Source: Amoebophrya sp. A120 (Eukaryota; Protista; Dinoflagellata). Taken from it: DNA of 64,000 bases. The stretch covers positions 1,519,341-1,583,340 of the forward strand of contig CAJINV010000007.1 of the NCBI GenBank assembly GCA_905178155.1, written 5' to 3'. Positions 1 to 64,000 of this stretch are shown here, in pieces. A program made the translations under genes and the position numbers. The notes under the pieces are model-generated. The model was not told the origin of the DNA. It saw nothing but the letters and a program-made list of their open reading frames with translations, and did no database searches. Position 1 is the first letter of the stretch. Every line of letters starts with the position of its first letter.

Positions 1-2071
1 GAAAGCTGCTGCTACTGGTGGCCCTGTTGATACTACTGATAGTACAACTACAGCAGGAGCTGCAACAGCGGCAGTGGACCCGCAAAGTAAAACCACGAAG
101 ACGCAACAGCAGGCTCCTCCGGGTAAGATCTCTACGACACTGCTGGCAAACAACAACAATAACGTAGGAACACCCGCAGAGATCAACATAGACATACCGA
201 GAGCTGCTTCTTCGAAAACGGCAGCGGGGCCACCACCAATCGTGCCACCTAGTAGACGAACCACGAAGGCGAAATCTTCACCGGCAGACGAGAAGCAGAA
301 CAAGATACAGTTCAATAGAAATTTGATCCAGCCCGAAGTGAACATCAATGCGTCCCACCCGGGGCTGATCGTCGATTTGACCGCCTCCCACGCGATTATC
401 GCGGTGGACACGGCGCCGAACGAAAAGGAGAAACTGTTTGAAGTGGATCCGCTGACCGGGGCGGTCAACTGGAAGAACCCCATGAGCGAGAAGTCCATGG
501 CCGCGAAGCGCGCGGTGGACTACGCGGCCCAAGACGTCGGGGAGACGAAGCAGTTTTGGCAGCAGATGGTGCAAACCGGGGGGAATAAAACGCAGGCGAT
601 GAAGATGGTGACCGCACGGGGGCCAAAACAAGATGGAGCAGGAAATAAGACCGTCAAATTTGGCGCAGCTCAGGATTACGAGCCGACTGCGGTTCATCTC
701 GCAGAAGAAAACGTGGCGGATATGACGTACTTATATTTATTAGCATAGCAAACCTTACGTAGTGTTTTGTGATTTCATGGAAAAATACTAGTTTGACTTT
801 GGCACGAAAAGTAGCACTTTTTTTCTCTAAAAAATGATCTTCTGCAGCTTCTGCCTGTCATCGACTTGTTTATGTTGATCTATCAAAAGTTAGTAGAAGG
901 AAAATCAGAAACCAAAACTCCACGAATACGAAAACGAATCACTTTCACAGCGCATCCCAGCTGGGTGCCCAGGGTAAAACAGTTCAAGTTTTCCGCAAAA
1001 CCAAGACCGGACGGGGGACGCAAGCTCCCCGGGAAACTGAGTTTGTGCTCCTGCACCTGCCGCAGGAATCCCAAACGGATATTCTGCCGGGAGGCGGGCC
1101 TCAGCGGAATATGCGGCGGAAGCGCGGCCCTTTGTCAACGGATAACTTGTACGGGAACCCCCAAAGTTATGGACTTCTCAAATGTTACATTCTCAACTGT
1201 TACATGAATTTGTAATGCAAGACTGGCAAAAGTGAAAGGAGGAAGATTGCGCCTTTTGCATTACAAGAAGTTTAGCGCAGATTCAGATGCTGCTTAGCCC
1301 TTCCGAGATTTGTCATGCGAAGCAGCTCGATCATCTGCCGGCTGAAGGTGCTTTTGCATGACAAATTCATGTAGCAGTTGAGAATGTAACGTTTGAGAAC
1401 GCCATAAAAGTATGAACAAGATAAACGGGACGTTTCAACCCACCGCTACGCACCTAGTACAAACCGGACGACCTGCGAATTACGGCAGTATGGAGCCGAA
1501 CTCGTCTCGGCCGAGACCAACGCGAGACCCCTCCGATTCCGGCACGATTTTGCTGATCATTGTGTGCGTCGTGGCGGGTTTGGCACTGGTTGCGGGGATC
1601 GTCGTGACGATTGTGTGCTGCAGTAATTACGCGGCGGATTCGGGCCCTGCTTCGTCGGACACCGCGACAACGACTATCGGAGCAGCTGGTGCTGTATCTT
1701 CACCTCCAAGTGCTGTGTTGCAGCTTGGCGATGGAAGGCAACGTGGCGAAACCGAAAGAAAGTACGGCACTACTGGTGAGGACCGTAGTACTTCTAGTAC
1801 GGCCGCACTAGTACCTGCAGAACGTCGTAGTACAGAGACACAGTTGTCAGCAGCATCTGCGGCCGCACGAACCGATGCGGAAGATTCCCCGCCGGGTGAG
1901 AAAAATACGCAAGGGCAAGAAGTAGTACCACGTGCCGAAGATTCTGCTGTATCGTGGAGTCAATTCATCCAAGGAGAAAGTACACCGAGAACAAATAGCT
2001 ACTTGGCACTGAAAAAGCGCCACCAGAGAAGAGCCCGGACGGTGGTCGTCAAGAAGGACGTCGGCTTGTGA
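1..2071 (+). CDS. 5'-truncated gene, low-complexity single-pass membrane protein; exons <1..726, 951..1167, 1412..2071
   Basis: Frame open from the window start. GT-AG intron 727-950 joins in phase (AC|C). Removing introner 1168-1411 gives DNLYGNPQS-MNKING. TM segment ILLIIVCVVAGLALVAGIVVTIVCC. Confidence 0.7.
727..950 (+). other. Canonical GT-AG intron
   Basis: GTACTT...TTTCACAG, AT-rich, phase-compatible with flanking open frames. Confidence 0.7.
1168..1406. mobile_element. Introner, family B (TIR TATGG.TTCTCAAA.GTTACATTCTCAACTG)
   Basis: ~50-bp imperfect TIR; perfect DR AAAGT at 1163-1167 and 1407-1411; homologous to 41457 and 54016. Confidence 0.9.
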
Positions 2072-3104
2072 AGGGGCGTGTCTTGTTTCGATTTCCTTTT
2101 CATCGGTAGCTACAACTTCTCGACATGAATTTCAATTTTTCATCCTCTCCCTGACCCTGCAGTAGCTACCCGCCATGTTGAGTAAGTACGCTTATACTAT
2201 GTAAAGTAGTTTCTCCATTTAGATTTATCGGAAAGGCTTCCAGTACGGGAAGCTTACCTATGTATACTTCCCCTCGATGAAACAAAGTCAAAGTGTTTTG
2301 TCTCTGGAACGAGCACCCGTTGGTTGCACGAAGTTTTGTGTCTGGAGCAGCAATGAAGTCAACACGGTATAATTTCGAATGGAGCGCCTGTACGGCGCTG
2401 GGCTTTTTGGTCGGATCCTACTAGCCGGCACCTCCACGCCTGATATTTTCTCGACCTCGAGGCTCCACGTCCAGCTCGTTGAAGTTGAAAACGTGTACGT
2501 TATACTGGAAAAATCTGTGATAATTGCTTATGCTTCGTTGAAAATTGAATCTCGGTAGAAAGTATGGAAAGTTAGTCGGATTGTGCCGTGTGTTGTTTTT
2601 CCCTTCGGTTTGTGCCGTGCATTCATTGTTGCGTTCGCAACTCTTCGTGCCAAGAATTGACGGTAACTTTCGTCGCGGCAGGACTCGTCTTTCGTTCGTA
2701 CCACCTCCGCTCGTTCGGCTTCGGTCAAGCAATGTTTGTGTTTGGTGCTTCACAGCTGGTGACTTCTTGTACCATTTTTTGTGTGAATACTTCTCACTTT
2801 TGACTCGCTCAGCACGTGACCTCCAGGCTACCCGCAACAGTATATTTTAGGCGTTCTAGTCACCCCGAAGTCGATAGAGATATGGATGTGAAAGCTCTAC
2901 TTCTTACCCCCTTTCAAATTGAATTTTCATCATCGAAAATAAAAGCAAGTTCCTCAAAAAACCCAACTTGCTAAGCATACAGGTTCAACATTTCCGATCT
3001 CGGTAGAAGTTGTTTTAGAGTTTTTATTCCCCCCAAGTAGTAGTTCAACATCAACATCAACAACATCAAAAGTTAAAATCAATTGTCTATCTGCATGAGG
3101 GAGT

Positions 3105-6100: not shown

Positions 6101-7404
6101 TGAAAAAGAGAATCATGCAAGTACCAGTCCTGCGTCCGCCGCCGCCGAGCAAGAACTTCCACCCGGCGGGGGCCCCGGCGCCGCGATAGTGGATCTGCCG
6201 TTGCCGACCTTCGACGAGATAGACGCGGAGGCGAAGGTGACCGCGGCTCTGTTGTTGAGTAGCACCACCACGAGCCCCCGCACCGCCAGTCCGGAGCCCG
6301 CGAAACTTGCCGACCTGGTGGCCGAGGGCGAGACTTTGCTGCACGAGGACCTGGAACGAGCCCACATCGACGAAAGCGAGGAGGGCAAAATGAACCTCGA
6401 GCGCGCCAGCCAAGCCTCCACTACCAGCGCGTTTTTGCGCAGGAAAGAGAGAACCAGCACCGCCCTGAAACCAATGCGGCAGCTCTCCATTCCGGAGGGG
6501 GAGTGGTTACCCAGAAACTTAAACAAAGTGCAAGGGGTTGTACTAGGCGACCAAGAAATCGCAGCCGCCACAGCCGAGGACTTAGAGCAGGCCGTCCGCG
6601 CCATGGGGAGCGGGATCAGCATCGGGTCATCAGCTTCTACTGGTAAAAATGGTGCTGCTACGCAGGGACCTCCACTACAGAAGCTCCAGCAACTCCTTGC
6701 GCTGTTGGATCAAGAGGAAAGTGGTACACCAAGTAGTGGTGCAGTACTTCTTTCTGGCAACAACAACAAGCGCTCCTCGAACAAGTTTACTGGCGAAGAT
6801 GATGATGATGCTTATGATGATTCCGAAAACGACGAGGACATGGACAATAACATGCTGGGTCAGGACGTGGTAATCGCGGTGACACTCTTGCAGAGACTGG
6901 CGAGGCTCGGGAATGGGTCGGTGGAAGCGATGAGCGACATTTTGGACGGGCTCGAGCGCGACCAAAACGTCTCGGGTTTGACCGGCGTGGACATCTTCTG
7001 GGAACACGAACACATGGTCGCACGCATTCTGCGCGAACACGTATTGATTTTTAGGCCCCTGCTGTTTTCACATTTTGGGTTTTCGTTCCCAGAAGACCTT
7101 CGCAACTACTCGTATGGTTCTGATCACCTGTAGATGTAGCACTTCTACTTCGGTAGGAAGGCGGCCACTGCTTTGAATTATGGGGTAGCACGATATTGAT
7201 AGAGATAATCGCTTGCTGCGCGCTAGCGCCTTTTTACATTATGTTGTGATTTTGATAAACATAAATACAACACCGAAAATACAGGAACTCGCGCGGCCGG
7301 CTTTCGGAGATGCGTACCACAGCCCATTTGACCCACTGTCTCCGATATCCCCAGCAAAAACAGTAAGAACTTCCTGGCACGCTGGGGATGCATGTGATGC
7401 ATGA
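3105..7404 (+). CDS. Large low-complexity, partly coiled-coil hypothetical protein (~1350 aa); exons 3105..7040, 7285..7404
   Basis: 1342-aa ORF. Putative phase-0 GT-AG intron 7041-7284 joins REH|ELARPAF. Last exon is tentative. Confidence 0.7.
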
Positions 7405-7770
7405 CATTTGTGTACTTGTTCGTATTGTTGTCATGAGTCGGACACCTCTCTTTGAGGTGGTAGTTTTTCTTTTCTCTGAATGTAGTGTACTCGTTCCGTT
7501 TCCATGCAAGAGCGTGCAGGCAGTTTTTGCAGTGGATAGCCGAGTTTAAGGTCTCTCGGTGCAAGGTCAAGTTGAACGTGCAGCATATGCGGCAAAGGAG
7601 TCGGTTGTGGTTCGAAGATTTTCACAAGACCAGCTTCATAGACGTAGTGTAGGCAGTCATAAATTAGGCTTTGCTCCTCATTTTTTCAGTACTCAATTCG
7701 TAACTATTCTTTCAAAATTATTGTGTTGATCTCTTTCTCTTCAGTGTATGTTTCTGTCGGAGTGCCAGCA

Positions 7771-8813: not shown

Positions 8814-11212
8814 ATGTCCTGGGTCGTGTTGGCGCCGGTGTGGTGGGTTTTTCGCAAAATGGACGAAGTTGTCGATGAGTACACCGACCACAGCGGTAGC
8901 TATCCACTCCTAGTCCATCCTTCCATTTTGTGAACATACAATTCCCAGGTTTTTCATTTGAAGCTTATGTGGTCTATTACTATTGTGCATGAATATACTT
9001 ACTTATCTATGAGAAGTCATCTTGCTCAGTGGCCAACAGAATAGATACTGTACAACTCTGGCGTTGTCCGCATACTCTAGTGTTGAAGGCACAGAGGTGC
9101 TACCAAGTTTTTCGGAAGTCAAGGCTCTTTGTGTAAGTATGCTTGGTGATGATCATGACCACAATGGGGACTGAAAGGATCCCGCTTGCAATTGCGGACC
9201 CTGTAGTTTGTTTGAGGAATTGGATATAAATGTAAGGCCATTTTGGTTTTGCTGGGATAACCCTGAGGAAATCGACATGAATGCCCCGATCAGACTGGCC
9301 CGGCAGGAAGAAGAAGAAGATGAAAACGCGAGGAAGTGTTTCTCGCGCTGTGGACGATTTATTTCCTTGCGAATGATGATTCGACTCACGCTCTTTCTCC
9401 TCCTTACTGTTCTTGGTGCGCTTTTTTATCTTTTCCTGTACTCGTCCGGCCATAATGTTCAGACGAGTTGCGCAAACGAAGGAACAGGTTGGCCGTGGTG
9501 CTATCTTTTGCAACAAAAAAGCTCCACTGAGTCGTGGTCCGGTACTAAACGTGAAGACGCACAAGAAGCTGGTACGTCGAGCGGGGATCATGGTACCGTG
9601 GGCGGCCAGCAATGGGTGGGCGAGCGGGCACATGTTGACAGGGATCCGCAGTATGACTTCGTTCCGGAAGGGACGGAGATGGACCACAAGAAGAGCCCGG
9701 TTCTGACTGGGAATGGTGATCATATGAAGCATCTGCCAAAGCGTGAATCTGATCGCCAGGCTCCACCTGCAACAATCAAAAACGGGGAGGACGGAGGCAG
9801 TAGCCTCCCGCGGCCGCCGAAGATCGCACAGGACGCAGCTACTGCTGGCGCCACTTCGGCTGGGGGGGACAAAAATAAACAGCACGGAAAAATGGCGCCG
9901 AATTTTTTAGACGAAAACGCATCTTCCAGGACCGGGAGACCATCAAACCGGGGCGGATTCGGGGAGCTCTTAAAAAATGCAGCTCCGGATGATGAAACGC
10001 CGGCGGGAGAGAAGGTACTAATTGATAGTGATCCGTATGAATATGAGGAAATCAATTTCGAACTGTGTCACTGTTTTAAGCGAAGCCAATCAATCTCGGA
10101 CTTCATCGTCCTCTTTGTCGGTGATTTCGTCCAAAATTAACAAACAGGCGACCCCAGCACAAGAACCAGGCTCGGATCTGCAGCTCGGAATCCCGAATAC
10201 TGAGGATCCGGGGGAGGGAAAGCATCAAAAGCCGCACGATCAAAATGTGCTCGAAACACACGAGAACCACGGGGAGACCACGAGCGAAGAACGACCGCAA
10301 ATGAGCCAGGGCTCTCAGGGACTCCAGCGCGCTGGGGCAACTTCAAGTGCTCCGGGGAGGTCTGAGTTTTCCTCGGGCTTTTTGGAAATTGTCCGACGTC
10401 ATACTGCTTGTTTATTTCCTGCTGGTTCTTCTAGCTCGTCGGAATCGGTGGATCCAACTACAGCAACACATGAAGAAAAAGAAAAAGAAGCAGAAGAAGC
10501 GCCAGCATCTACTCCACGAGCAATGACGTATGAGGAGGGCGTCCAGATGCTGCAGGAGCTGATCGTTGAGGAAGTCGGAAAAGCTGACCACAAAGCCGAA
10601 AAAAAGGAAACAAAAGAAAAGATGGGTGACCTGTTCCCTAAGACCATCCAATTCCTACGGATGGAGGACACCAAAAAGATTTTTCTGCTATGGGGCCAGT
10701 ACAAGGCTGAGCTACATGATCAACCGGCGGAAGCTGCGAAGATGGAACGAAGAGAAGGTGACTCGACCTGGGATATCGTCCAACGTGCGTTGCAAGGGGG
10801 GGGGGAGAATGCCGCCGACGGTTTGCGCCGTCAGGGCCAGTTCCTGGCTCTCAGTGGGACAATCGCAACGACGTTCGTGGACAGTGTCAGCAAGAGCCAC
10901 GAAGAACATCTGGATCAACTTGAAGGGATCACTGCTGTCCTGAAATCAAAAGACGGACAAATCCTCGCGTTTGGCGATCGTGGCCTTCTCACATGGTATG
11001 AAAATGCTCAGCGGCAACATGCTGGGAAGTATCGGATTGTCAAAGGCGACGATCCAGCAGAGCCAGATGGAGAAGATGTGAGGTCCCTGTACCAAAATGA
11101 AAAACTTCGCCTCCGCCCCATATTCAAAAAGGAATTTCTCGTTCCGGATTTGCGTACACAGATGAAGTTGTCATGTCAGAACGTAACAGCTACGGCGAAA
11201 GCGAATACATAA
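8814..11212 (+). CDS. Putative membrane-anchored or secreted protein (~680 aa), paralog of 11577-14281; exons 8814..8895, 9045..9132, 9207..10014, 10148..11212
   Basis: Three phase-compatible GT-AG introns (first two tentative; alternative ATG at 9277). TM LTLFLLLTVLGALFYLFLYS. C-terminal domain FPKTIQFLRMEDTKKIF. Confidence 0.6.
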
Positions 11213-11576
11213 GGCTGCCAGGCATGGGAAAGCGCTCAGCAGGAGTCCAATGCCTGTAAGTGCAGCTCAACAGGAGTCCACTGCTTTGCGTGGAATATCA
11301 TGACAAATCCCCAGAAAGCCAGGCATCGGCTGCGTCTCTTTGCCTTCTATTGTTTAATCATACGAATTCAATAATATTTTTGGACACAAATGATCCGAGA
11401 AAACCGGCTGGCCTGATCCTGATAGCGTCCGCGCTGGAAGGAAGCAGCCGCGCCCGTATGCGCGCGGCCGTTTGACCATCCGCCTTCAACCGGGAACCTT
11501 GGTCTTCTTCAGGCTGGAGGGAAGAGTAGCACGTAGCAGCCCGCCAAGGGACATACTACCAGCATCATCTTCACGC

Positions 11577-14281
11577 ATGAGGGGTCTCCGCGTGAATATG
11601 GGGAGGGGGGATTTTTGTCGCAATACCCGGGCAAAACTAGTGCCGCTGACTTTAATTACCGGGTATTCCACTTATATGACCATGGTCATTGCAGCAGCTG
11701 CACCACCAGCAGAATTGGGTGAAATTGGCCGAGGACATGTTGACTTGCGGAAAGTCGCCGACATGATCATGAGTGAACACGTACTAGAACGAACTTGCCT
11801 AGCCGGTGCCGAAAGCGAGGCAAAAAATCTGCTATCCCTAGAACCAGGGAGTCAGAATGTTCCCTCGTGGAAACAAGAACTCGGGCAATTTCTCCGAGCG
11901 GTCGAACCCGATGCACATGTTGAGAAGAAGGCGGAGCTGCAAATGCCTCACCGCGCTGCACTACCTCCAAACGTGGTGGGGTCGTCACCTTCGTCCTCCT
12001 CGGCCGCAGCCGCGTCGTCTGCTGGGGATTCACTGCGACCACACGAAACACCGATCCCTGATGCTGATGGGCTCTCTCTTTCCGAACCATGGAGAACGGC
12101 CGAGCCGGTCGCTCCCGGAGCGCCAGGCTCGGGTCTCCCCGCAGCAGTAGCCCCGCTTCCATCTTTCGTGGCAGGAGCGGCAGGACGGCGACCTGCAGGA
12201 AGAGCAACACCAGGAGCCGGAGGGCCAGCTGGGCCGCCTCAAGAATCGCAGCGGCTTCTCCTGCAGCAACGCGGCCAGGAGCCTTCCCCTTCGCACATCC
12301 CAACCAACCGCGCAATCGGCGGAATAAACTCACGCAACGAGGCGCAAGGGGGCCGTGAAACGCAAGGGGTGGCACCGGGGGAACTTGGCAGTGCAGGCGC
12401 GAATGGGCGGAAAGCCGGTGGCGGGTGCTGCGATAGTTTTCTCGAGCACAAGCCGGCAGTTTCCAAAGAGGGACAAGATACGAAGAAAAAGCTTCAGCAG
12501 GGAAGAGACCCGGATGGGGATGATGAGTTTCTCGAACACATGGATGACCCAGACGACGAAAGACTCGACCAAAATCAAGACTTTCGAGAACTGGAACGAA
12601 ACACGACCGAGGAGCCGTCCGCGTTTGCTTCCAGCTTTTTAGCTGCTGGGTTGTGCCCTTCGTCGCCGGTGGAAGAACCGGAACCCCCTGCCCCTCCAAC
12701 ACCGCGCCAGCCTCGCCCAGTAGTTGTAGTAATACGAGCTGTAGCCGATAAGTACGACGATGAACTTGAGCAGGTCGCCAAGACGGAACTCGACGATGAT
12801 TTTTTGACTGCGGTGCAAGTCCTTGGATGGAATACAGCTATCTCAACTCATCCGAAAAATCTCAGCGTTGACATTTCAACCCCCAACGCTGGGGAATTTA
12901 TCTCAACTGCCGGCACCTCGGTGCCTCCAGCTGCATTGGTTTAGGGCTTCGGGCTTGGGTTTGGGGTTTAGGGTCGTCGCCGGCCGGCGGCGGCTGCCCG
13001 CCCGCAGAGTCTCTTCTCGCCCCCTCTTCTTGTGCGCGCCCTGTGGCCTTTGTTTTTTGGCCGTGCACGCGTCCGCACCTCCGCGCCCGCGCTTGTCTGG
13101 CGTTTCTTCCCGCCGACCCATTCGCCATCCCACGGCAATTGCTCATGATGATGATCCGCATGCGTGACGTGGGTCGTTGAGATTAATTTTTGGGAGTGGT
13201 TGAGGCCCTCGGGGTCGTTGGGATCGAAGCGTTGAGATAAAAGAATTGAGATTCCTGTATGCCATCCCAACTCCTTGATTCCGTCTGTCGACGAAAATTG
13301 CTGCAATTGACTCACGATCGGCAAGGAAACTTGCTGAAGCCTGAAGATGGAGAAACGACGCTCGAAGCCTACTTCCCGACGCTGTTTGAATTTCTCCGCC
13401 ACGAGGACACTAGATCGATTTTTCGATTGACTGGCCAGCTGTTCGCGGAGGCGGAGAGAGGCGGAGAGGCGGATGCAGCTGCAGCTGCGATGCGCAGAAA
13501 TGCAGGGAAGGAAGCGCAAGGACATGAAGAAGTTGATGGGATGAAGTTCCAAAATACTTTACAAAAAGTGTTTGAAAAGCTCGACCCGCTGTCGCCAAAT
13601 ATGAGACAAGATGATTGCGAATCGCAGGTGTGGCCCTTGTTTTTAGAAAAAGATATGCGCGGGAAAGGCAACGGCGCGTATCAAACTAACTGGATCGGCC
13701 GCCTGTGTGTCGCGGCTACAACGTTCGCTGCGAAGCTGCAAGAGGCGCCCAGCATGGAGGACAGCGTCGCCGGCATCGGTGATTTTCTGCGGAGTAGTGA
13801 TGGCAGAATCCTGTTTCGAAGCTACGGCTTGCCGTATTTCAATGACAAGTGTGGAAAGGATCTTGGCGAGGAAACCAATGGTGGAGCAAGCGACTATGTT
13901 GACTGTCCGCTTCGGGAACTTGGTGTCCGCAATTCGAGAGTTATGGTGCTGTATACCATGGCACAAATGATCATCCGCGTACTAATACGGCTGCAGGTGC
14001 AGAAGCACGCGGAAATCGTCGAAGAATGCAACCACGACCGCGACCTCGCCAGACAACTTGCAACCGAATCCTTTTATCGTGCCTTCACAGCGGCCACTAC
14101 CCCGTCTTTGGGTTCCGAAGAGCCGGTCCGCCGGCAGTTGAGATGGCTCTTAGCTGCGAGAAACGATGCGCTTAAACAAAAAGACGCTCAGTCCAAAAAT
14201 GAAGACCAGACAGCAGGAACGACCCCTACCACCCCCTTTCGCGTTGAAGACGGTTATCTGGGCCAGCTGCTCGGTTTCTGA
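11577..14281 (+). CDS. Putative secreted protein (~750 aa), paralog of the upstream gene; exons ~11577..12818, 13271..14281
   Basis: Two ORFs joined in frame by removing 452 bp between the 9-bp repeats (TAVQ-LLDSVCRRK). N-terminal hydrophobic stretch; SFLE/EFLE motifs. Confidence 0.7.
12825..13267. mobile_element. Atypical MITE-like intronic element with 9-bp direct repeat
   Basis: Imperfect TIR GGATGGAATACAGCTATCTCAA / TTGAGATTCCTGTATGCCATCC; DR CAAGTCCTT (12816-12824) / CAACTCCTT (13268-13276); subterminal TCTCAAC/GTTGAGA repeats. Confidence 0.75.
12938..12973 (+). repeat. Degenerate telomere-like (TTTAGGG)n array
   Basis: TTTAGGG CTTCGGG CTTGGG TTTGGGG TTTAGGG. Confidence 0.6.
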
Positions 14282-14504
14282 GATGTGTAGTCTCATTCCC
14301 ATTGTCACCGTAACAGAGTAGTCAGTCATTAATTATGCTTTGACCATGTATGATCATTTCACTTTGATTTCAGTAATTAAAATTAGTTCACTCAATGTTA
14401 GGATGTTAGGAATTTTCATTTCAGTAAGAACGCAGTAGTTGAGGGTTTATGTTTAGGATGTTTAACTTTCGTAGATTTCTTTACTTCAGCAATCAGCCCC
14501 CTCT

Positions 14505-14690
14505 TGTTCATTTTTTTATTTCTTTTTTTATTTTTTATCTTTTCGCCCTTTTTCTTTTCGTTTTTCATTTTTTCCCCCCCATTTATTTTTTTTTTCGCCT
14601 TTTTTTGCTTTGGTTTTTCCTTTTCGTTCCCCTTTTTTTTTCTTATTTTATTTCGTGCTCACTGCTTTTTTTTTCCTATTTCTTTTATTG
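14505..14690 (+). repeat. T-rich low-complexity tract
   Basis: ~185 bp of T runs interrupted by one to a few C/A/G bases. Confidence 0.85.
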
Positions 14691-51100: not shown

Positions 51101-54100
51101 GAGCGAGATCTTGTCTTCCAGGTCTTCCAAGACAAACAAATTTTCGGCGAACAGCTGCTCACCCTGGACGAACAAAAATTGGACAGTATGGGGATCACAA
51201 CGTTCGGCACGAGACGGCATTTGAGCCTGGCGATCCGGGATTTGAAAGCGGATATGGACCAATCCGGGTCAAACAGTATGTCGAACACGAGTTCTGCGAG
51301 ATTAGCCACCCCGAGCCTGAAATCCGAGTTCTCCAGCCGCATGGGCGGTGGCGTTGCAGGAGCAGTACCTCCTGGTGGTGCGGCAGCCAACAACATGATT
51401 TTGAAGGTCGGAATGCACACCGCGCCGAACTACACCTCGTCAAGTGCGACGTCCGCAAACGGCATCCGGAAAGTGGAAGAATCCTTAGGGTTCGCGCCCT
51501 CTTCCAGCCCCAGCCTAAGCACCGTGAATGGCAGGATGAACAACAATGCTGGCGCGCGGTCGCGGTCTCCCGTCGTGGCAGGGGGAGCGACCACAGGTAG
51601 TACCAGCAACAAGAAGCCGGTGCTTCCCGCGGCGAAGATCCAGGGACTCGCGCCCTTAGCGCAGGTCACCAGTCCGCCCGCCAGTCCGAAGCAGGGCGGC
51701 GGCAGCGGAAGAAACTCGCCGGTTGGGCCGCAATCCCCGGTGTCGCTCGTGCCCGCGATTTTTGACAGTGCGGTGCCGGAATTGCGGAACATGTCACCGC
51801 GATCCTCGTCGCCCTTAGCGAAGGAGCGACTGTTAGACTTCAAGCAACCGGTGTTGAAGGCGAAAGTCCTATGGGAGTGACCAACTCGTCCCCTTCTTGT
51901 CATGCAAAATACCGAAGAACCCAGGCCAGGCTGTGCCTCTGCGCACTGTTTCTTTTATGTCAAGCTCTGTCAGCCCAGCAAATAGCACCACACTCCTGTG
52001 CAAATTGGTCATGCAAAACCTGCATTCTCGCTGACGCTTGTATTGCCGTTCATGCTACACAAGTGTAAATGAGCAGAGGGAGCAGGGGGAGTTGTGCACT
52101 GCCATAAGTCGAGTCCCCCTCCTTGAACCCCATCGCGCCGATCAACACAAGCAAGCAAACTATGCATTGCAAATAGGACGAAATGTGTCTGGGTCTGGAA
52201 CTGGAAGGTTGTACTTAATATGTGACGCGTCCCCGCCGTCCCGCAGATAACGCAAAAACTTGCCTATGCCTTGCGCGGGTAGCACAAGAAGTCCTTCTAA
52301 AACAGTAAGTATTTTTTCTCATGCGGGATATGCATAGCGAAGCCCTTAGCCTTACTAGTATAAAATCTGTGAAGATGGGCCTTCACCCTGTATCCCAGGA
52401 TTGCTCGTGGAGAATCCGCATGACAAACTCGTGCACTCACCCGGTCCCAGACATCTTTGCATTTGATACAGACGAAAGAGCAGGGGTCGAGTTCCGGACA
52501 GCGGTTCCCGCGGCTCGCGCTACCGCAAATGGACTGGAACCGCGTCGTATGGAGTGCAAATATGTAGTCTGGGTCTGGAAGAGTGCAACTTGTCATGCTA
52601 AATCTGAATCATGCAAGCGTCTGTGTTGCGTCAGTCTCAGTGCTAGTAACAGCTGTCCACTTTCGGCCAAGTTCGTTGTGAGGGAGTTTCTCATGCACGA
52701 CAGGCATGACAGAGACCTCCTAGAGTCTGTCATGCTAGTACGTCCCGCATTCGAGACCTCGTGGGTCATGGGAAACCTGCGTAACAAGTTGACACTCTTC
52801 CGGGCCCAGACGTATTTGCACCTGATACGTCGCGAGCCCGGACGCGGCGCTGTCCCAACTCCGCACGGACATGATGGAAAAGCGAGCGCGTTCTCTCGAG
52901 CGCATGCGCGCGACGATCGCGAACGCGGGTTCGAATTTCGAGGCGGCGCAGAAGCAATTGGCGGGACATAACGCCACTAGTGCTGCCTCGCCGCGCACCG
53001 CGACGATCGCCGAGACGCGGTCCGCGGCAGTGGCGTCGGCGTCGCAGTTTTTCAAATCCGGCGCGGTTTTATCCAGTGCAAACATGTCTCTCGTCTGGGT
53101 CACCTGGATCTGGAAAAGTAGAACTTGTATCACTTGGCTGGCATTCGTGTGAAAATTAATCGGTGTTGCATGACCAACAAAAGATCGGCGTTTTGTGCCA
53201 TGCAGAAACACAGTTTGATGAATTTCCAATGCGCACTTCGCATAGGCATATGAAAAAGCGCCCAAAATTTTTGCCATGCTTTGCTGCACAACTAGAGAGG
53301 CTGTTGAATTCTGACCATTCAGCATCAGAAGTTTCCAGACCCGGAGGATGACAGATATTTGCAATGCATAGGTTTTAAGGGAGAACGTGGTGCAGCCGAT
53401 TGCGTCGCCTGTGTCCAGCCCGAGATTGAAGGCGGCGTTAACCGGCGTCCCGCCGTTGGGATCAGGGGATATGGTCGGGTTTGTGACGAGCGTCCCGGAA
53501 GGGGAGTACCTACCGCCGAAGTGGATCGGGAAAACGGGCTGGATTTCGGGACTGATGCGAAATATGCCGTGCAAAAGGATCATCGCACTGCAACTGCTGC
53601 CTAAGACATGCTGACATCCAATTGTTCCGGACGGAAATTTATAAGTACAGGGGGTTCTTTGTGATGCAGGTTGAGGCATGCATATGCAAGCAGGTCTGTC
53701 ATGCGAGACTGCAAGGACTTGTAAGTAGGAGTGCGAAGATTCCTTTGCAGTTGATGCGAAACGGAAAGGTGCAAGTCTCGGTTCACGGGGACCAGCCTGG
53801 GACTAGGGAAACGGCGGAAATCACGACAACCTTGCTGGTTCCGGTGACCAGGTCCGGCGCCGCGAGTCCCGGCGCGGTCTCGTCGCCGGTTGGATCCAAG
53901 GGAACAACGGCGGTCGGGGCAGGCACCGGGGTGATGATGAACAAGGGATCTGCAGTTGGGGGCGTTGTCCCTGCCGGGCTGACGAGACCGGTGTCGGCAC
54001 GACCCGGGGCGAAGATATGGCGCTCTCAACTGTTACATTCTCAACTGTTACATGAATTTGTAATGCAACACTGGCAAAAGTGAAAGGAGGAATATTGCGC

Positions 54101-55455
54101 CTTCTGCATCACAAGTTTGGCGCAGATTTAGGTGCGGCTTACGCCTTCGCAAATTTGTCATGCCGGGCAGCTTGATCGTGAGGATGATGATGGTGCTTTT
54201 GCATGACAAACCATGTGAACAGTTGAGAATGTAACAGTTGAGAACGCCATAGAAAAGCAAACCGGCGGCGGTGAGAGGTGGCGTTGCTGGGGCTCCACCT
54301 GCTGTAACATCAACTCGGCCCGGAACAGCGGGCTCTAGAAGTAGTAGTCGTGGCGCGCCGTCGCCGGTGCGGGGGCGGGTTCCCTCGCCGGTGGCGCGAA
54401 GAGGCCCTAGTAGTCCCTCGCCCGTGGCCAAAGCAAAAACACCAACTCCCAGCACTTCTGTGAGCAGTAGGCCGAATATTAAACAGGCGATGGGGAAGAT
54501 GCCGAGCACAGCTCCCGGGACTGCGTTGAGACAAGCAATTGTAGGCTCCGCGTCTAGTAACAGCAAGGCGAGCGCCACTACATTCGCTGCGAGGAGGGCG
54601 CAAGTGAAGAAGGCGTCGGCGAAAACCGCGGCAAAGAGCAAGACACCCAGCTACGCACCGCCGTCGCGCGGCAACACTGTGGGGGCACCTTCTAGTACCA
54701 CTACGCTGTCTACTAAGAACGCAGCTCCTAGTGCCACGACGAAAATGCCAGAGCCGACGCGAACGATCACGGCTTTAGGCACAGCGCCGAAGAACGCCTC
54801 GAAGGGAGAGCAAACGGCTGTGTCTGCGGGCTCCAGCAAAGTTTCTAATACGGGGTTGCTGAAAACAGGATCGATTCTGCTGCCGAGCTCGCTTGTCGGT
54901 ACTACCACTGGTGCGGCGTCCTCGAGGGGTGCAACTACTGGAACAGCGGGAGCCGGTGCACCTCCTGCGTCGAAAAATGTTGTTTCATCTGCAGCTGCTG
55001 TTCCCTCCATGGTGAAAACACCAACTCTGACAAGCACCAATGTCCAGCTGAGTTCGCCACCGAAACCCGTGTTGACGACCGGGAAGATTGGCGGAGCGAA
55101 ATTCCTCGGAAATGCGGTTCCGACGTTGTTTTACGGGGAAGAAGAAGTAGAAGAGCACGTGCTTGTTCAGGATCTTCACGATGAAAAAGTTTTCGTCGAC
55201 GACGAACCCGAAACCACCAATTATACGAATGCAACTGCAGTAGCAGTCGAGGTGGAACAAGAAGAGAAGAAGTTGAGGGACACGCAGACGATTTTGGTAC
55301 CAGCAGTTTCGTTCGTGGAGCAGGGCGAACCTGCTTTGTCTGCGGTAGTGCGGACGATCCGCGCGACGGGGACGCCGGACAAGTCGTCGAGTCTGTTGCA
55401 GCCGGCTGGTGTGAAGGAGGTGCTGAGTAGTTTGGAACGGGGGGCACGCGCGTGA
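48132..55455 (+). CDS. SAM-domain protein with a possible KOW/SH3-like module (~1500 aa, 14 exons): 48132..48598, 48801..48993, 49155..49303, 49506..49838, 49958..50136, 50296..50522, 50714..50860, 51065..51868, 52111..52160, 52474..52547, 52833..53069, 53376..53562, 53762..54015, 54257..55455
   Basis: 10 introners plus 3 GT-AG introns (49839-49957, 50137-50295, 50861-51064) give a continuous 4500-nt frame. SAM: PVADWGVEEVLQWL...FQDKQIFGEQLLTLDEQKLDSMGITTFGTRRHLSLAIRDL. Confidence 0.8.
48599..48795. mobile_element. Degenerate introner (singleton)
   Basis: TAT...ATA ends, weak TIR, DR CCGCC/TCGTC; in-frame removal. Confidence 0.65.
48994..49149. mobile_element. Introner, family E
   Basis: TIR; DR CCTCG. 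Confidence 0.9.
49304..49500. mobile_element. Introner, family E
   Basis: TIR; DR CCCTC/CGCTC. Confidence 0.85.
50523..50708. mobile_element. Introner, family E
   Basis: TIR TATGAATCGCAAAAGT / ACTTTTGCGATTTATA; DR CCGTG/CCATG. Confidence 0.87.
51870..52106. mobile_element. Introner, family G
   Basis: Imperfect TIR; DR AGTCC/AGTCG. Confidence 0.82.
52161..52468. mobile_element. Introner, family A (diverged)
   Basis: GTCTGGGTCTGGAA end and CCCAGACATCTTTGCATTTGATA end; DR CAAAC/CAGAC. Confidence 0.83.
52548..52827. mobile_element. Introner, family A
   Basis: TIR; DR CGTCG; interior homologous to 57718 and 59472. Confidence 0.92.
53070..53370. mobile_element. Introner, family A (diverged)
   Basis: Imperfect TIR; DR GGTTT. 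Confidence 0.85.
53563..53756. mobile_element. Introner, E-like
   Basis: Imperfect TIR; DR CGAAA; join MRN-GKV. Confidence 0.8.
54016..54251. mobile_element. Introner, family B
   Basis: Highly similar to 1168-1406; DR GAAGA/GAAAA. Confidence 0.92.
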
Positions 55456-56350: not shown

Positions 56351-59300
56351 ATGCGATACCGCGATCTTCCGGCAGAAGATGGTCACAGTCGTCCCGTCGA
56401 GTACAAGAACCACGAAGATGCAGGAGAGCCTACAACTTCCCCGGCCAACTTCTCTTGCCTGCAGGCCGCCAGCTCCCGAACCCGCGCCTTTGCGGAGTCC
56501 TGCGTGCAGCAAATCTGGATTTCCGGACGGACCGTTGTCGTTACCGTGCTCGATTGGTCGGAGTACGCGGGCGAGCAGTGCTTCCAGGTCAACGCTTTCG
56601 AGCGGATCGCGCAGTTCTTCCGTCAAACCGTCCTGGACCCAATTTTTCGATGCCTCCCCTTCGCGAGGAAGTTTGTGCCGAAAAAGTTCAGCGTCGCGGC
56701 GTTCCTGATCGCCTTGAACTTCGAGCAGGTCGGCCTGGGCGTGTTGTTCATCCCCTATTCCTACGTTCTGGACGGCAGCGACGTCTTTTACGACGGCGTC
56801 ACGGTCGACAGTTTGAGCGTGTGGTACGCAACGGTTGGGAGTTCCGTTGGAGAGAGGACCACAAATAGAACTACAAATACTCCTGCTGATGCAGCTGCAG
56901 CGCGAGGCGAGAATGCTGCATCGTCGACGAGGAGACCCGTACGTGGCAACGAAAAATCCTCCGGGGCAAGAACTGAGAATGTTGACATCTCACTCGAGGA
57001 CAAAAGTGCAAACCAGGTCAAAGATGCGACAAGATCGGGAGCGCACGACACTTCTTCAGCACAGCAAGATGAACCAGGTGGATCAGGCATAGAAGGAGGT
57101 CGTGTCAGCAGCACTCCCGCGGATGTTGATCATGCAGTAAAAATGCCTTCCCTCTCCGGAATTTTCGATCCAGATGATGTCGACGGTTCCATCAACGAAG
57201 TTGAACCCACTGTGACGCAAAAGTTCCTGACCGAGGCTGGACTCCAAAACGTCACCTGGCACAGCGTCCGTTCTGAACTCTACGCATTGCAAAAATATTG
57301 AGCGGGTCTGGAGGATCGCGAGATTTCGATTTGTCCTGCAACATCTCCTCGTGGACCACGCACGCCATGGTCCTGTGGAATGCACACAGAACCATCACAG
57401 CTTGTGTGAGAGGACCTTGTTCCTCATGCCTCTTCCGAATGAGAAGTCCGCGGCTCTTTGCCTATTTAGTAAGCAAGTATTGATGTTGCTGTTGGCGTTT
57501 ATGTAGGCAACTCAGATTTTTTTGTGATCGAGACTTCGTGTCGTGGCAAGCTGCATCCTGCTGCCAGACCACCCCGACATGTTTGCAAAAATGTATAAGC
57601 GCGAGGGAAGTGCGAAGTTCCGCACCTTGGAATTTTCCGTGGTCGTCGCTCTCGTCGTTCTGCTCTCTATCCGCATCTCCGACCGGCTTTCCGCCGGGGC
57701 GAAGGAAACCGAATGCTTATGAAATGTAAAAATGTCTGGGTCTGGAAGAATGCAACTTGTCATGCTAAATCTGAAGCATGCAAAAATCTGTGTTGCGTGA
57801 CTACCAAAAGTCGTCCAGTTCTGACCAAGTCGGGAGAGAGTTTCTTATGCAGGATATGCATGAGAGACATCGCACAGAATCTGTCATGCTAGGTCCTGCA
57901 TTCCAGACCTCATGGGTCATGGAAAAGCTGCGTGACAAATCGCGCACTCTTCCAGACCCAGACATTTTTACATTTGATAATGCTCGAACATCAGCAACGC
58001 TTGGGAGATGGTGTCCACTGCGACCTTATCAAATGTAAAACTGTCTGGGTCTGGAAGGATCCAACTTGTGATGCTGTCTTTCAATTCTAAGCAAATCTGT
58101 GTTGCATGACCAGCAAGACGAGGCCAGTTTGTGCCACGTGGAGAGGGTATCTCTCATGCGGAATGGGCATCACAAAGCCTTCTAAAAATCTGTGATGCTA
58201 GGCCATGCATTACAGGCTTTGTGGCTGATGCAGAATATGCAACACAAAGCTGGCAGTTTTCCAGACCCAGACATTTTTGCATTTGATAGACCTTCGGCTA
58301 CGCGCGGGAGTTCTTTCTCCAAACCGCGTACCATTTCCTCCTTTTCGTGGACTGCGTCGCCGTGGCGTGTTTTGCAAAGAAAAAAGTGTTGCAATCATGA
58401 TTGATGTGTTGCAGGAGCAGGCCCGGCAAGACGAAGACAGACAACCTTTGCAGTGTTCTTGCACGAACTGCTTGTTTTATGCGTGATTTTTCTTAGGATC
58501 TTCGCATTATCACGCGGAGAAAATTTGTGTTGCTGCAGCTCCAAGTACAACAAACGTGAAGCTGTAGCACTTTAGTTTTCTCGGGATACTTGTTTACAGT
58601 ACACGATCAACTGCTGTTTGCTCAAGGAGCTACGTATGCCCTGAAATAAATTAACCACCCCCATCCAGTTTGTCATGCAAAACATGTAAGCAGGTTCTTT
58701 TCTGCGCTTGACTTTGTCGTGTAAAAAGTGGATGGGGAAGATGGTTGATTTTCAAGGAATACTGCTCTTGGCCGAAGTGAAGGACTACCAGGCGGAGTAT
58801 GTGAATGTGGGGGGAGATGGTGGGGACCAGGTTGGTCCTGGTGGAGCAGAAGTGAGTTCGCAACCTGTACTAGACCGTAGCCAGCAAAGTAGATTTGTTC
58901 AGCAAGATGTGCTAGGTGGAGGTGCGCGAGGGGAGCAGCCATTGCAAGAACTTCTTGCACAAGCGCAGAACAACTACAAGAGCTACAACCAATCTGGCAG
59001 CACGGCGCCTTCCTCTCATCTCTCCCCCACGAGCGCGACTACATCGTCCTACTTCACTATTCAGGAAACGAAACTGTGTTATAGAAGTGCTGTTGGAGCC
59101 AGCGTGGTCTGCATGGTGACAGAGAGATCCCGTTATGCAGATGCTAGTACAGGTACGTGAAATTCTTGAAGGGCTTCCTGGCTTTCTGGCATGGCAAGTG
59201 TAAGTAACTGTGTTCTTGCCTTTTCTGCATATAAACAGTTTTTCTCTCGCATATTCACCCACTCCATCATCACCTCGAGCAAATCGCTGAAGGTATGCAA

Positions 59301-62300
59301 TGCAAAAGCATCGTACTAGTATAAATTGCATTACAAATTACCCCAGCATTACAATTCAAATTTGTAATGCTGATTTACGTTGAGAAAGAGATTTGTAATG
59401 CATAAATGCAATTACTACGAATACGATACTTTTGCACAGGATAGAAGGAGGAATTTGACAACTATGTGTCCTATCCACTGCAAATATGCCTGGGTCTGGA
59501 AGGGTGCAACTTGTCATGCTGAATCTGAATCTTAGTTACAAAAGTCTGTGTTGCATGAGTGCCAAGAGTTGTCCACTTTCGAGCACGTTGGGAGGGAGTT
59601 TCTCATGCAGGATAGGTATGACAGAGACCTCACAGAGTCTGTCATGCTAGCTCCCGCATTCCAGACCTCGGGGGTCATAGAAAACCTGCATAACATTCCA
59701 TTGACTGCTCGTCATGCGATGCACATACAGAGTTTTTCATTTCAAAAAATCAAGAAACAGTGTCACAACTTGCACTTTTCCACCAGATGACGACCCAGGT
59801 TTGGAATGCATATGTCTCAACTGTTCCGTCTGGGCGCCGTGGAATTGGATGTCTTCGTCGGGATTTGGGTTGCGGCGTCCATCCTGCTTTTTTTCCCTTT
59901 TGTCGTGAAATCCCGCGCTAACTGGCTCATGCTGGAAGTCGGCCAGAGCTACAGCAAGGGAGAGCGGGTGGGATCCGCTTTCGGGATTTTGGCGGTTTTG
60001 TGTCTGGTGTACAATTTACTGTGGCTGGTTTGCAACGGTGAGATCTTAGGGCCGGCGCAGGAAACATTAAACGGGGAGTCCTCAGACGGAGGCGGAGCGA
60101 GAACAGGAGCTTTTAAAAATGCGAGGGGGACGCGTTCAGGAGTCTCTCTTTCGGGGCTGCACTATAATCAGCAGCACCATGATATTCTTCGCGACGGGGA
60201 GGGGCTCGAGTACTTCTATCAGCGGGAAATGATAACGACAACCAGCAAGAACGCTGCGGCGAAAATGAAGATGCACGACCAAAATTACTACAGCCACGGA
60301 ACTACAAGCCGCAGCGGGTTGAAAAAAGATTTCTGGGCGATGGATAGTACTACTACTGCTGGTGCCCCCTCGCAGCTGATGTCCGCCGCCACAGCTGCTC
60401 CGTTATTTGTCTTGCAGCTACAGGAAAATGATCAAAATAAGACTCAAGGGCTTCGGCGTTCCGACGATTATAATTCCGATAATGGTCCTCGTCCTGGAGC
60501 CAGCTCCAGCACGAGAACATCTGACACCTCAACCACAGTGGCCTTCCGCACTTACTCGAGAAGCATCTTCGAGCAAATCCACACCGTGGTGGAGCTATGC
60601 ATTGCCAAAGTATCATACTCGTATGATAAGTTGCAGCGATGCATGACAAATCTAAGTCCTTAACTTTTCCAGCATGACAAATTGCATATTTTCTTCTTGC
60701 AAAAAAAATTTATTGTGATGCAACTTATACTAGTACGATACTCCTGCAATGCATAGAAGCAAATGGTCCAGGCTTTCGACAAGACTTACAAGACCGTCAA
60801 GCACCAGGCGCTCCGGTTCCGCGGGTACTGTTTGGGCATTTCCCTGCTCTTCTTCAGTTTCTTCGTGAACCATATGCATTGCAAAAGTATCGCACTCGTA
60901 TAAATGCATTGCAAATGTCCTCAGCATGAGAAATAAAATCTGCACTGCGGATTTACCTTGAGAAAAAACTTTGTAATGCATGATTGCAATTACTACGAGC
61001 ACGATACTTCTGCACAGGATAAACCACTTGGAGCTACCGTTCGTGCTCCGGCACCACCCCGTCGGGGACCAAGTGTTGAAATACGCGCAGCGACTGTCCT
61101 TCGTCTGGAACTTGGCCATCGGGATCGGCTTGGCCCAGGTGAAAAAGAACCCGAACCTGTTACTCCCGACCAGCTGGGTCTTTTGCCGGCTGTACCTGAT
61201 TGTCGCGCTTTTTTTCGCTTTGGGGACCAATTTACGGCGGCTGCAGATTTACCTCTTCATGTCCATCGCGAACCTGTCCAAGTGGTTTCTAGTCCATATG
61301 ACGCGATCCGCTGTTACAATGTCAAATACAAACGTTACTACAATAGAGTCAGTCTGGAACAATAATCTGTCTTGTGTGATCAGCATGACAGAGTGTAGCT
61401 CTACCGCTTGTATTTGCAATAAAAGTTTCTCCAGATTGATTATCATGCGGTTTGGGACTCCAGAAGAACTTGTCTGTCATGCGTACTATTCCTGTCAGAG
61501 TAGGCCAGATCTTCGTGCACTTTTTGCGTCACAGATTTTCATAGCTATTGCAACGTTTGAGAATTACAATTATGTGATTGTATTTGTAACAGGTGAGCAG
61601 GTTATAGTCCAGTACGAGAAGCGGACGGGCACGAGGGTGGTGGACGTCAGAATACCGAACTTTGAAGAACTATGGGGGTGTCAGGATCGAAATCCGCAAA
61701 ACTGAAATAATCTGTAATCGTAATGCAAAAGAGCGATACCAGCTGGAGCCCAGTTCGTTAGTGGCACATGACAAATTTTGGCAGCACGGAAATCCAATTT
61801 GTCATGCTGTTTGAGCAGAGAAGACTAGACTGCTTTTCTCATGCTATTTTAGCAGCTCTATCTCACACCCCAAAGAGGGTTATAATCGGCCTCAGATGCC
61901 TGCTCTGCAAGACAGGCACCTTGCGTCTAGCATTTCATGCATCACATCAAACTATAATTTCAACTTTGACGATTTCAATCCTGACACTCCCATAAGAACA
62001 GTTTTTTGACGAGGAAGATGTAGCCGCGAGTGACCTTCTTTTCGAGGAAGAAGTTGTAGAAACTGGTTTTACGAGAAATCCGCTTTACCCGACGAGCAAG
62101 GAAGCAGTTTCGCAGAGTCTGCAACAACCACTGCTCTCGCTATCAAAGCCGTACGACGCGGGAAGGATTTTTGAAGATGTCGCGAGCAAAAGATCGATGG
62201 TGCAAGGTGAACAGGAGCCACGACCAGAAGGTGTACCACATGAAATATTAAGACCACGAGGAGCTGGACGATCAATAGCCGCTCCTTCTTCAGTAGCACC

Positions 62301-64000
62301 AGCAGCTGCTCAGGGGGAGCTGCCGGGCATCATGAGTAGTACAACTAACACATCTTCAGACCAACTTGTGCTTGTTCCTACTTTCGCAGGAGAGCACCGA
62401 CCTGGTCTGAGTAGAGACCCGCGAGTACGAGGGTCTGGCGAAGTAGTCGATCGCGACACGACGACCAGGGACAGGATTTTTATAGACCCGAGCAGGAACA
62501 CGAACAACTACAACAAGAACAAATGGGCCACCAGCACCTCCTCCTGCTCCTCCGAGGGAGCTCCTGCAGAAGCAGAGCCCCCGCTTGTTCCGAATGAAGA
62601 TCGGAACATCAGGAACAGCTTTGGAGATCGTGACCACGACACGACCCTGCGGTCTACTTCCTCCTCACTCGTGTTGCAGCGCGGGCCGTCGTTATCGTCG
62701 TCTCGATTGACTGACCCGGTGGTCGTCGGAGAAAATGACATGATGAGCAGTGCTGTCACTGTAGTGGTCGAGAACAATAGCGAAGATGGCCTGTTTACAG
62801 CACCAGAACCCACCTCCGCAACGGGTGGACCGCCGCGCAGGAGCACGACAGTAAAAAACCTCACACATGATCGTGATTCAAAGCAAAATCTAAATCGGGA
62901 AATCAACAAAATCCCTTCACACGAGTCGTCCAGTAGCAGCGGCTTTCACACGGCAGAAGAGTTCTTCTCCGAAGATCAGATATTCGTAAACGGCACGGCG
63001 GGAAGAGTTGTTGTCGTTGGGGCCTCGTTATGAATTGCAAAAGTACTATCGCACACGTACTAATCGCAGTCATGCAACAAGACAAGTTTCTTTTCCAAGC
63101 TAGATCAGCATGAGAAATTGCATTTGTCATGTTGAGCTAATTTGTATTGCAATACTACGAGCACGATACTTTTGCATTGCATGCTTGTCCTCCTCCTCGG
63201 GATCATCCTCCAGCGCGCCAGACTACAGTTTCCTACCGTCCCTGCGCAGCGAGGGAAGTGCTGTAGCAGGGGCGGTGACGACTTCGGCTACGATGAGCGC
63301 TCAACGAGTTGTACTACAACAACCCGAGGGGGAAACGACCAGCGGGGGTGACATATTAGAAGTAGCGGCGGAGAACGTCGTAGAGCTGCATCCAGACGAC
63401 GGCGAGAATGATGTTGATATTCGAGAGCAAGAAACGCAGAATCGTCAAGAACAAGACATTCTTGGCGATGAAACGATCGGAAAAAATCACACAGTGAAAC
63501 AACAATTAATGCTACCTCGAGATCATGGACAGGAAGGTAATCATCGTGAGAAGAGGACCATTGCACCGTTGGGTCTTGTTTCAGGACCTGCTACCGCATC
63601 ACCATCTTTGCTAGGTGACGATGTTGACGACCAGGAGGAGTTATTTTCCGCCAGGCAAGAAATAAACTATAACCAGCACACAACCGCAGAACCTTCTCTC
63701 GTCGACGACGTCCCACCCAACAGAACCGCACTGCCTTTACTTTCGCACCGATCGCCGAGAGAAGCCGCGGGAGCCATCAGGAAGATCGCAGACACTCACG
63801 ACGAAGTAGAGCAGCACGAAGATCATGTGGGCGGGGAGCAGTTGTACCGGCGCCGGAACCTGCATAAAAATCCCTCGTCGTCTCGAGGCAGGACGAGCGA
63901 CAACAACCTCCTGACAGCACGACCAGACCGCATCATCCTAACCGTGGACCAACTCGAGCAGCTCGTGCTGTTTCCCCGCTCCCTATTAGAGTGCACAACT
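56351..64000 (+). CDS. 3'-truncated multi-pass membrane protein, possibly amino-acid/auxin permease (AAAP)-like; split by at least 11 introners
   Basis: AAFLIALNFEQVGLGVLFIPYSYVLDG resembles AAAP TM1. Further hydrophobic exons at ~57600, 59840, 60000, 60820 and 61100-61290. Introner joins are in frame; exon structure at 58330-58500 and 59130-59240 is unresolved. Confidence 0.6.
57281..57597. mobile_element. Introner, family A (old; orientation like 21454)
   Basis: Degenerate TIR; DR AACTC/AGCGC; removal opens a TM-coding exon. Confidence 0.65.
57718..57979. mobile_element. Introner, family A
   Basis: Near-perfect TIR; DR ATGCT. Confidence 0.95.
58027..58288. mobile_element. Introner, family A
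   Basis: Near-perfect TIR; DR GACCT. Confidence 0.95.
58635..58761. mobile_element. Short degenerate introner (singleton)
   Basis: TIR TATGCCCTGAAAT..TTAACCA..CCCCATCCA / TGGATGGGG..TGGTTGATTTTCAAGGAATA; DR CTACG/CTGCT. Confidence 0.7.
59294..59443. mobile_element. Introner, family E; equivalent to canonical GT-AG intron 59293-59447
   Basis: TIR; perfect DR GAAGG. Confidence 0.92.
59472..59812. mobile_element. Introner, family A
   Basis: Left TIR and interior match 52548; DR TGTCC/TGTCT; join NYVS-QLF. Confidence 0.85.
60596..60755. mobile_element. Introner, family E
   Basis: TIR; DR GGAGC/GAAGC. Confidence 0.88.
60873..61021. mobile_element. Introner, family E
   Basis: TIR; DR AACCA. 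Confidence 0.92.
61297..61606. mobile_element. Introner (singleton), stop-free in the host frame
   Basis: TIR TATGAC..CTGTTACAA / TTGTAACAG..GTTATA; DR GTCCA. Confidence 0.85.
61671..61994. mobile_element. Introner, family F
   Basis: TIR; DR AGAAC; homologous to 45798. Confidence 0.93.
63029..63183. mobile_element. Introner, family E
   Basis: TIR; DR CTCGT/CTTGT; downstream frame appears open to the window end. Confidence 0.87.

Follow-up and report, generated by a model that had tools for sequence, protein, structure and literature searches.

Introners of Amoebophrya A120 share a regularly spaced internal motif that is probably a DNA site for their mobilisation

The window analysed here, the whole 64,000-nt stretch of Amoebophrya sp. 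A120 contig CAJINV010000007.1, contains 36 segments derived from introners, short elements that carry terminal inverted repeats (TIRs) and are removed from RNA as non-canonical introns. We found that a 10-mer, YYTGT(C/G/A)(A/T)TGC, is common to all 15 multi-copy families of these elements, with about six sites per element across 505 elements, and that its sites keep fixed distances from each other. The motif is probably (at roughly 0.65) a site on double-stranded DNA for the enzyme that mobilises the elements, with splicing being defined by the element ends. The elements themselves are, by their matching features, the already published A120 introners; the internal lattice appears unreported.

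Results

Introner sample and element ends

Related loci were collected by scanning metagenomes with a family-0 TIR. This gave 141 loci (663 kb once merged), the best 80 of which are every one on contigs of assembly JACKZZ01, with elements up to 96% identical to those of the window. A boundary finder that required at least one TAT/ATA end and scored 5-bp repeats returned 505 elements, 25 in the window and 480 in the related loci, and none in two Markov controls. Of these, 33 are singletons and the rest form 15 families with 3-197 copies each. Since fishing with the family-0 TIR biases the sample toward family 0, statistics were weighted by family. The 36 window segments combine boundary-finder elements, profile matches, and RNA joints.

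The elements are laid out as TAT...ATA tips flanked by a 5-bp target-site duplication (TSD). TAT..ATA ends are present in 475 of the 505 elements (the finder demanded at least one) and a perfect TSD in 399. At TIR positions 11-13, 84-93% of elements have A, most families reading AAA there. Along lineages, this block and positions 1-3 do not vary. The TIRs, the TSD, and the short, non-coding, repeated bodies are those of MITEs (miniature inverted-repeat transposable elements). TAT followed by seven variable nt and AAA, the direct repeat at the boundaries (3-5 nt in that group), and removal at non-canonical sites are those of A120-type introners. No target-site preference was seen, neither AG/G nor any other.

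The initial annotation had called the families otherwise unrelated. The shared tips, the block at positions 11-13, the 5-bp duplication, and profiles that match other families over full or near-full length (for example 6 with 10, 0 with 12, and 2 with 4) contradict this, and the families are related to each other, judging by these sequence matches. What it took for decayed TIRs are mostly positions 4-10, where one arm differs from the other, even in the consensus of a family and in the youngest copies.

An internal motif is concentrated in the elements

The strict 9-mer TTGTVATGC has 53 matches on the two strands of the window, compared to 1.60 ± 1.23 (maximum 6) in 100 shuffles, and 51 of these lie within the 36 element-derived segments, which total 9,111 bp. 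The remaining two (23910 and 36045) are at chance level. The enrichment over background and the rarity outside elements proposed by the initial annotation were thereby confirmed, as were its four copies in element 1168-1406, at positions 1210, 1258, 1310, and 1356. Its statement that nearly all elements carry several copies holds for a relaxed 10-mer matrix, trained on these same elements, with at least two sites in 33 of the 36 segments, but not for the strict 9-mer, which is present in 24 and has two or more copies in only 13.

Relaxed sites occur at 24/kb in elements versus 3.0/kb in shuffled elements. Outside the elements, the window has two strict matches in 55 kb and relaxed sites at 1.36/kb, which is background. 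In the 505-element sample, the strict motif has a density of 8.06/kb inside elements and 0.54/kb outside, the outside fraction still including missed elements.

Motif sites follow a fixed geometry

The first 29 bp of the elements are almost free of sites. Same-direction pairs peak at 31-33 bp and forward-then-reverse pairs at 16-18 and 47-51 bp, describing a repeat unit with a forward site at 0, often a weak reverse site at about +17, and a forward site at +31-33. Same-direction pairs at 31-32 bp were detected in 14 of the 15 multi-copy families and in 8 singletons (weight 24.7 versus a null of 4.0 ± 2.0, maximum 10 in 300), and a 30-33 bp pair is present in 410 of 505 elements. The 33 singletons alone contain 13 pairs at 31-33 bp where 3.0 are expected, a number reached in none of 2000 shuffles. 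In 22 of the 26 family ends that have an inward site, the outermost one is 30-32, 38-42, or 50-54 bp from the end, which puts the start of the lattice at about 31, 41, or 52 bp. The fixed spacing and the end distances both appear new. Spacer identity is 0.19-0.45 in 11 of 12 modules and 0.62 in one, which gives no support to an origin of the 32-bp module by tandem duplication. The conservation of the core across 15 families, together with the fixed geometry, supports the suggestion of the initial annotation that a shared trans-acting factor may be involved.

Motif sites are blind to the direction of transcription

A codon model assigned the coding strand to 313 of the 505 elements, in agreement with the locus majority in 268 of 271 cases. 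We counted 929 motif sites on the RNA strand and 848 on the opposite strand, and no significant orientation bias among the nine largest families. Family 4 has 5.8 versus 0.7 sites by direction, yet is inserted 15:17 with and against transcription (19:18 by locus-majority strands). The strand specificity relative to transcription that is expected of a single-stranded RNA site was thus not observed, and the strand-blind motif together with the family 4 ratio excludes a simple site of this type.

This bears on the preference of the initial annotation, that a factor licensing non-canonical splicing binds the motif on single-stranded RNA. In its favour, the motif is confined to element-derived introns. 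However, the UUUGU form is absent from the RNA of 15 of the 313 coding-context elements, and the GCAU form from 15. Proteins that bind single-stranded RNA also do not typically show a rigid 31-32 nt spacing. Orientation largely refutes this explanation, unless each strand has its own factor, and we consider it barely credible.

Motif cores are conserved along lineages

Rates were taken from trees of eight families, with 427 copies that deviate from median length by no more than 15%; terminal branches in these trees combine unsampled lineage change with post-insertion change. On internal branches, the rate of change in motif cores is 0.41 of that in the other interior. TIR positions 11-13 show zero internal-branch change and a terminal rate of 0.0195. 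From a line through these positions and the other interior, the post-insertion rate of cores comes out at 0.019 (ratio 0.99, 95% 0.73-1.36), matching two gauges, half the TSD mismatch rate (0.021) and the positions 11-13 block (0.019). In TSD-mismatched copies, the excess change is the same in cores as in the other interior, 0.0076 versus 0.0081 (second estimate 0.0115 versus 0.0112). The core/other ratio is 0.57 in coding and 0.52 in non-coding contexts, no difference given wide intervals. When copies were binned by end decay, their divergence from the family consensus mainly reflected subfamily differences and was not discriminating.

Cores thus appear to be kept in mobile lineages and, under this model and with low power, to decay approximately neutrally after insertion. 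The initial annotation had named decay at the same rate as the surroundings as the result that would speak against its idea; this is what we see for post-insertion change (again low in power and model-dependent) but not along lineages (0.41). It had also stated that the motif persists in old copies with decayed TIRs, whereas site density falls together with TIR identity, from 3.07 to 2.38 per 100 bp, and is 1.89 in singletons.

If the motif had no present function and were the relic of one ancestor with a 32-bp internal repeat, related families would be expected, as the cross-family profile matches indicate. The slow change of cores on internal branches, the loss of repeat identity in the spacers, and the 31-33 bp spacing maintained across five family groups argue against this, and we regard it as very improbable. 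It is less far-fetched, though still quite unlikely, that a host DNA-binding or chromatin protein on the sites favours amplification, through accessibility, donor-site repair, or escape from silencing, with the transposase reading the TIR only. With such a protein, strand-blindness, spacing, and conservation confined to lineages would be expected equally, and one motif across families that differ at TIR positions 15-30 would be explained. Background motif levels outside elements would, however, be unusual for a general host factor, and the sites' discrete distances from the cut end point to contact with the complex that cuts it.

Excision follows the element ends

RNA-like contigs (runs X3-X6, one sample, RNA nature predicted) contain at least 15 joints in 45,401-56,100, of which three are GT-AG and 12 skip the element plus 5 nt exactly; the DNA-like run X1 reads into elements. 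Among the 12 excised elements, four are without the strict 9-mer, eight are without an intact 30-33 bp pair, and one ends in ATG. That ATG-tipped element (53563-53756) is still cleanly excised, and the ATA tip therefore is not strictly required for splicing.

Mismatched duplications place the cut no earlier than TSD base 4 (48599 and 54016) and no later than base 4 (51870). A single register fits 12 of 12 joints, with the upper bound coming from one joint: the intron is N + TAT...ATA + NNNN, cut between TSD bases 4 and 5. This register, which appears unreported, makes the T of TAT an invariant +2 U, such that introns read N-T...N-N. It predicts N-T starts in A120 and T-T starts in A25, whose introners have TTA ends; in Table S4 of PMC7789003, as far as accessible, the predominant A120 splice sites all start N-T and the A25 sites T-T. 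We also noted a GT-AG intron (50861-51064) that starts with G+TAT and in which two relaxed sites overlap; it may be an ancient element, though it has no TSD or TIR.

The sites might instead aid splicing in a strand-blind manner, with a DNA-bound protein marking the nascent RNA or inverted copies forming internal RNA stems that draw the element ends together, and a role in mobilisation may coexist. All 12 excised non-canonical introns have at least one relaxed site, and four GT-AG introns are without the strict 9-mer. Motif-to-motif pairing is 0.53-0.80 in seven of eight predicted folds of family consensus sequences, near-neutral decay would be expected of each of six redundant sites, and U1 small nuclear RNA (snRNA) is given as undetected in A120 and A25 in the accessible text of PMC7789003. 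On the other hand, predicted pairing is only 0.18-0.23 in family 4, yet this family is found in both orientations in coding sequence, excision is exact in copies that have one or two weak sites and no pair, and coding contexts show no clear additional core conservation, with wide intervals. Central dinucleotides of inverted neighbours also are without clear covariation (8/26 versus 4.7, p=0.065; 4/15 versus 4.7; hairpin covariation not significant). We consider a strand-blind splicing aid unlikely, but worth keeping in mind. For the splicing or RNA-binding role favoured by the initial annotation, the strand-blind sites, the density falling with TIR identity, the apparently neutral post-insertion rate, and the excision of 4/12 elements without the strict 9-mer all point the other way.

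Discussion

A model for mobilisation

For the motif as a double-stranded DNA site of the mobilising enzyme, we propose that an integrase-type DDE transposase, or a DNA-binding partner, would load as an array on the sites, which would lie on one helix face given that 31-32 bp is about three turns. The loaded array would pair the element ends, cut at TAT, and integrate with a 5-nt stagger. Selection would retain sites in actively copying lineages, while inserted copies would lose them at an approximately neutral rate. The spliceosome would take its cue from the element ends, cutting 1 nt ahead of TAT and 4 nt past ATA, and excision of the element plus one duplication's worth would restore the gene. 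Binding, the identity of the protein, post-insertion neutrality, and spliceosome involvement are each points that we infer.

In a bolder version, one integrase-derived protein reads the family-independent 32-bp lattice, mobilises hundreds of TIR families, and, DNA-bound during transcription, hands the ends to a U1-less spliceosome cutting N/TAT...ATA NNNN/, with only the +2 U needed. We regard this as a long shot; if true, a transposon protein would define introns in a DNA-templated, strand-blind way.

Several observations weigh against a mobilising enzyme that reads the motif. No transposase family was found by Pfam in the 97 ORFs (open reading frames) scanned of the 563 listed in related loci or in 13 window ORFs, and Farhat et al. 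(PMC7789003), in the text available, report no such enzyme for A120. The families are not independent, and the sample was drawn with a family-0 TIR. With regard to geometry, the end-distance step of about 10 bp is resolved only to 9-12.5 bp, outward sites show no phasing relative to the end, same-direction spacing has one peak and no 10.5-bp series (21 and 42 bp are background), and family 6 has no 31-32 bp pair. With regard to conservation, the core/other-interior rate on terminal branches is 0.56, columns without internal change have 0.028 in cores versus 0.063 elsewhere, and reading this lower terminal change as pre-insertion change is an assumption of the model. Constraint on both gauges would leave room for some protection of cores. 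The intervals for the excess change in TSD-mismatched copies include zero, and no indel constraint was seen within families (15.6% inside modules versus 16.9% outside). Family 8 insertions lean 2:8 (p=0.11). Finally, redundancy could mask a need for sites in splicing, as all 12 excised elements keep at least one.

A search for an autonomous partner found none among long TIR pairs in 0.73 Mb. Most such pairs join separate elements by chance. Two longer single elements, of 972 and 1104 bp, also emerged. The 1104-bp element (L014:505-1608) has family-7-like TIRs, six sites in its first 180 bp and none in its last 200 bp, and a GC-rich interior with CCTCTC-type repeats; it is a candidate deletion derivative of a longer element, and its scanned ORFs have no Pfam match. 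A scan of viral contigs with a TIR 18-mer gave three loci without element context, a chance result.

Features of the window

Positions of the element-derived segments are collected in Table 1. Window genes are co-oriented, which together with the element features and the telomere-like repeats described below fits Amoebophrya A120. Two neighbouring genes have coding ends that look similar by eye (34590-35091 and 36210-36665) and are possible tandem paralogues. Positions 12941-12972 and 14500-14690 contain interstitial repeats of telomere-like type (TTAGGG/TTTGGGG-like) and a long T-rich tract, in a region unlike the flanking genes and with ORFs without Pfam match. In one related locus (L011:2625-6080), two adjoining ORFs align with successive portions of PF00145, the C-5 cytosine DNA methylase family.

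Table 1. Introners and introner-derived copies in the window, with their motif sites, site pairs, and RNA joints.
Positions	Element	Ends and duplication	Sites and pairs	RNA
1168..1406	introner, family 6	TSD AAAGT	1209+ 1217- 1258- 1309+ 1356-	
7346..7538	old introner, singleton		3 relaxed, 0 strict	
11091..11624	decayed family-2 copy, internal insertion (profile matches)	approximate		
21454..21718	introner, family 0		9 sites, 31-33 bp pairs x3	
22333..22796	family-2-like introner, internal insertion		7 sites, 3 pairs	
24667..24945	introner, family 4, in long coding region		6 sites, all same direction (24697, 24728, 24776, 24809, 24858, 24889), 3 pairs	
32709..33020	introner, family 2		32-bp pairs x3	
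33590..33858	older copy, family 3	approximate		
37792..38112	introner, family 2		3 pairs	
41457..41734	older copy, family 6		5 sites	
41784..41940	introner, family 1		31-bp pair x1	
45798..46103	introner, family 7			RNA-like contigs skip element + 5 nt
46789..47013	introner, family 5			230 nt skipped
48599..48795	old introner	TSD 3/5	2 relaxed, 0 strict	exact 202-nt skip
48994..49149	introner, family 1			161 nt skipped
49304..49500	old copy, family 1		1 relaxed	exact 202-nt skip
50523..50708	old copy, family 1		0 strict	191 nt skipped
51870..52106	introner, family 5	TSD mismatch		upper bound for splice register
52161..52468	old copy, family 0		2 sites	313 nt skipped
52548..52827	introner, family 0			285 nt skipped
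53070..53370	diverged copy, family 0		0 strict	306 nt skipped
53563..53756	old family-1-like copy	3' tip ATG, not ATA		exact 199-nt skip
54016..54251	introner, family 6			241 nt skipped
57281..57596	old copy, family 0			
57718..57979	introner, family 0		2 pairs	
58027..58288	introner, family 0		2 pairs	
58371..58588	old copy, family 3	approximate		
58631..58764	remnant, family-8-like	approximate		
59058..59253	old singleton	TSD perfect	1 relaxed	
59294..59443	introner, family 1			
59472..59812	family-0 copy with insertion		7 sites	
60596..60755	introner, family 1			
60873..61021	introner, family 1			
61297..61606	introner, family 10			
61671..61994	introner, family 7			
63029..63183	family-1 copy	3' tip ATG	31-bp pair x1	

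Relation to known systems and significance

A120 introners as described in the accessible text of Farhat et al. 2021 (PMC7789003) and Gozashti et al. 2025 (PMC12130899) share with these elements TAT plus seven variable bases plus at least three A, the 5-bp repeat, a length of about 240-280 bp, and non-canonical introns, and the family lengths of 106, 149, 214, 260, 278, 305, and 319 in PMC12130899, compared over 23 of its 58 A120 families, match families here. They differ in that these texts describe no internal motif, spacing, or single splice register. Our literature search found no account of the internal motif, though supplementary figures S19-S25 of PMC7789003 may show one. In the portions available, PMC7789003 rules out general mobilisation by transposase and calls the splice sites variable, and PMC12130899 assigns introner families to diverse transposable element classes. 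The published tally for the lineage comes to about 29,850 introners, divided among 1,954 families, with no transposase and no family-specific signal found.

Two reports, as far as their accessible text goes, lend weight to a mobilising enzyme: an A120 family labelled '5-bp TSD, TA/TA termini' has Copia/Gypsy-like ORFs (PMC12130899), and Lemi1 proteins bind subterminal repeats of Emigrant MITEs cooperatively (PMC1636448). MITEs of the Emigrant/Lemi1 type share short, lineage-conserved repeated motifs internal to the TIR of a non-autonomous element. Unlike in such MITEs as described there, one motif here spans many families with differing TIR bodies, fills the whole interior, and forms a 31-33 bp lattice. 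In the accessible text of PMC10045372, IS3EU/GingerRoot elements have TA..TA termini like those here, with an integrase-like DDE enzyme of their own and a TSD of 6 bp rather than 5, and IS481EU, likewise with an integrase-like DDE enzyme, shares TNT..AYA termini, with a TSD of about 4, 15, or 25 bp. We rejected a placement in either group on duplication length, despite the termini (PMC10045372; PMC12730594, in the parts available). Euglenid and Fritillaria introns also are TIR-bounded, with TSD-like repeats at non-canonical junctions, but follow other boundary rules, with no internal spaced motif described in the text available (PMC11282704).

Subterminal repeats also are carried by hAT and CACTA elements. 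For the introners, a shared, rigidly spaced DNA site speaks for a single system, mobilised by a single factor, and provides a defined probe with which to isolate that factor. Splitting the motif from the splice signal, together with an end-fixed register with an invariant +2 U, would narrow the problem of how most introns are recognised in a eukaryote without detected U1 snRNA, and would explain the harmlessness of insertions into coding sequence in either orientation.

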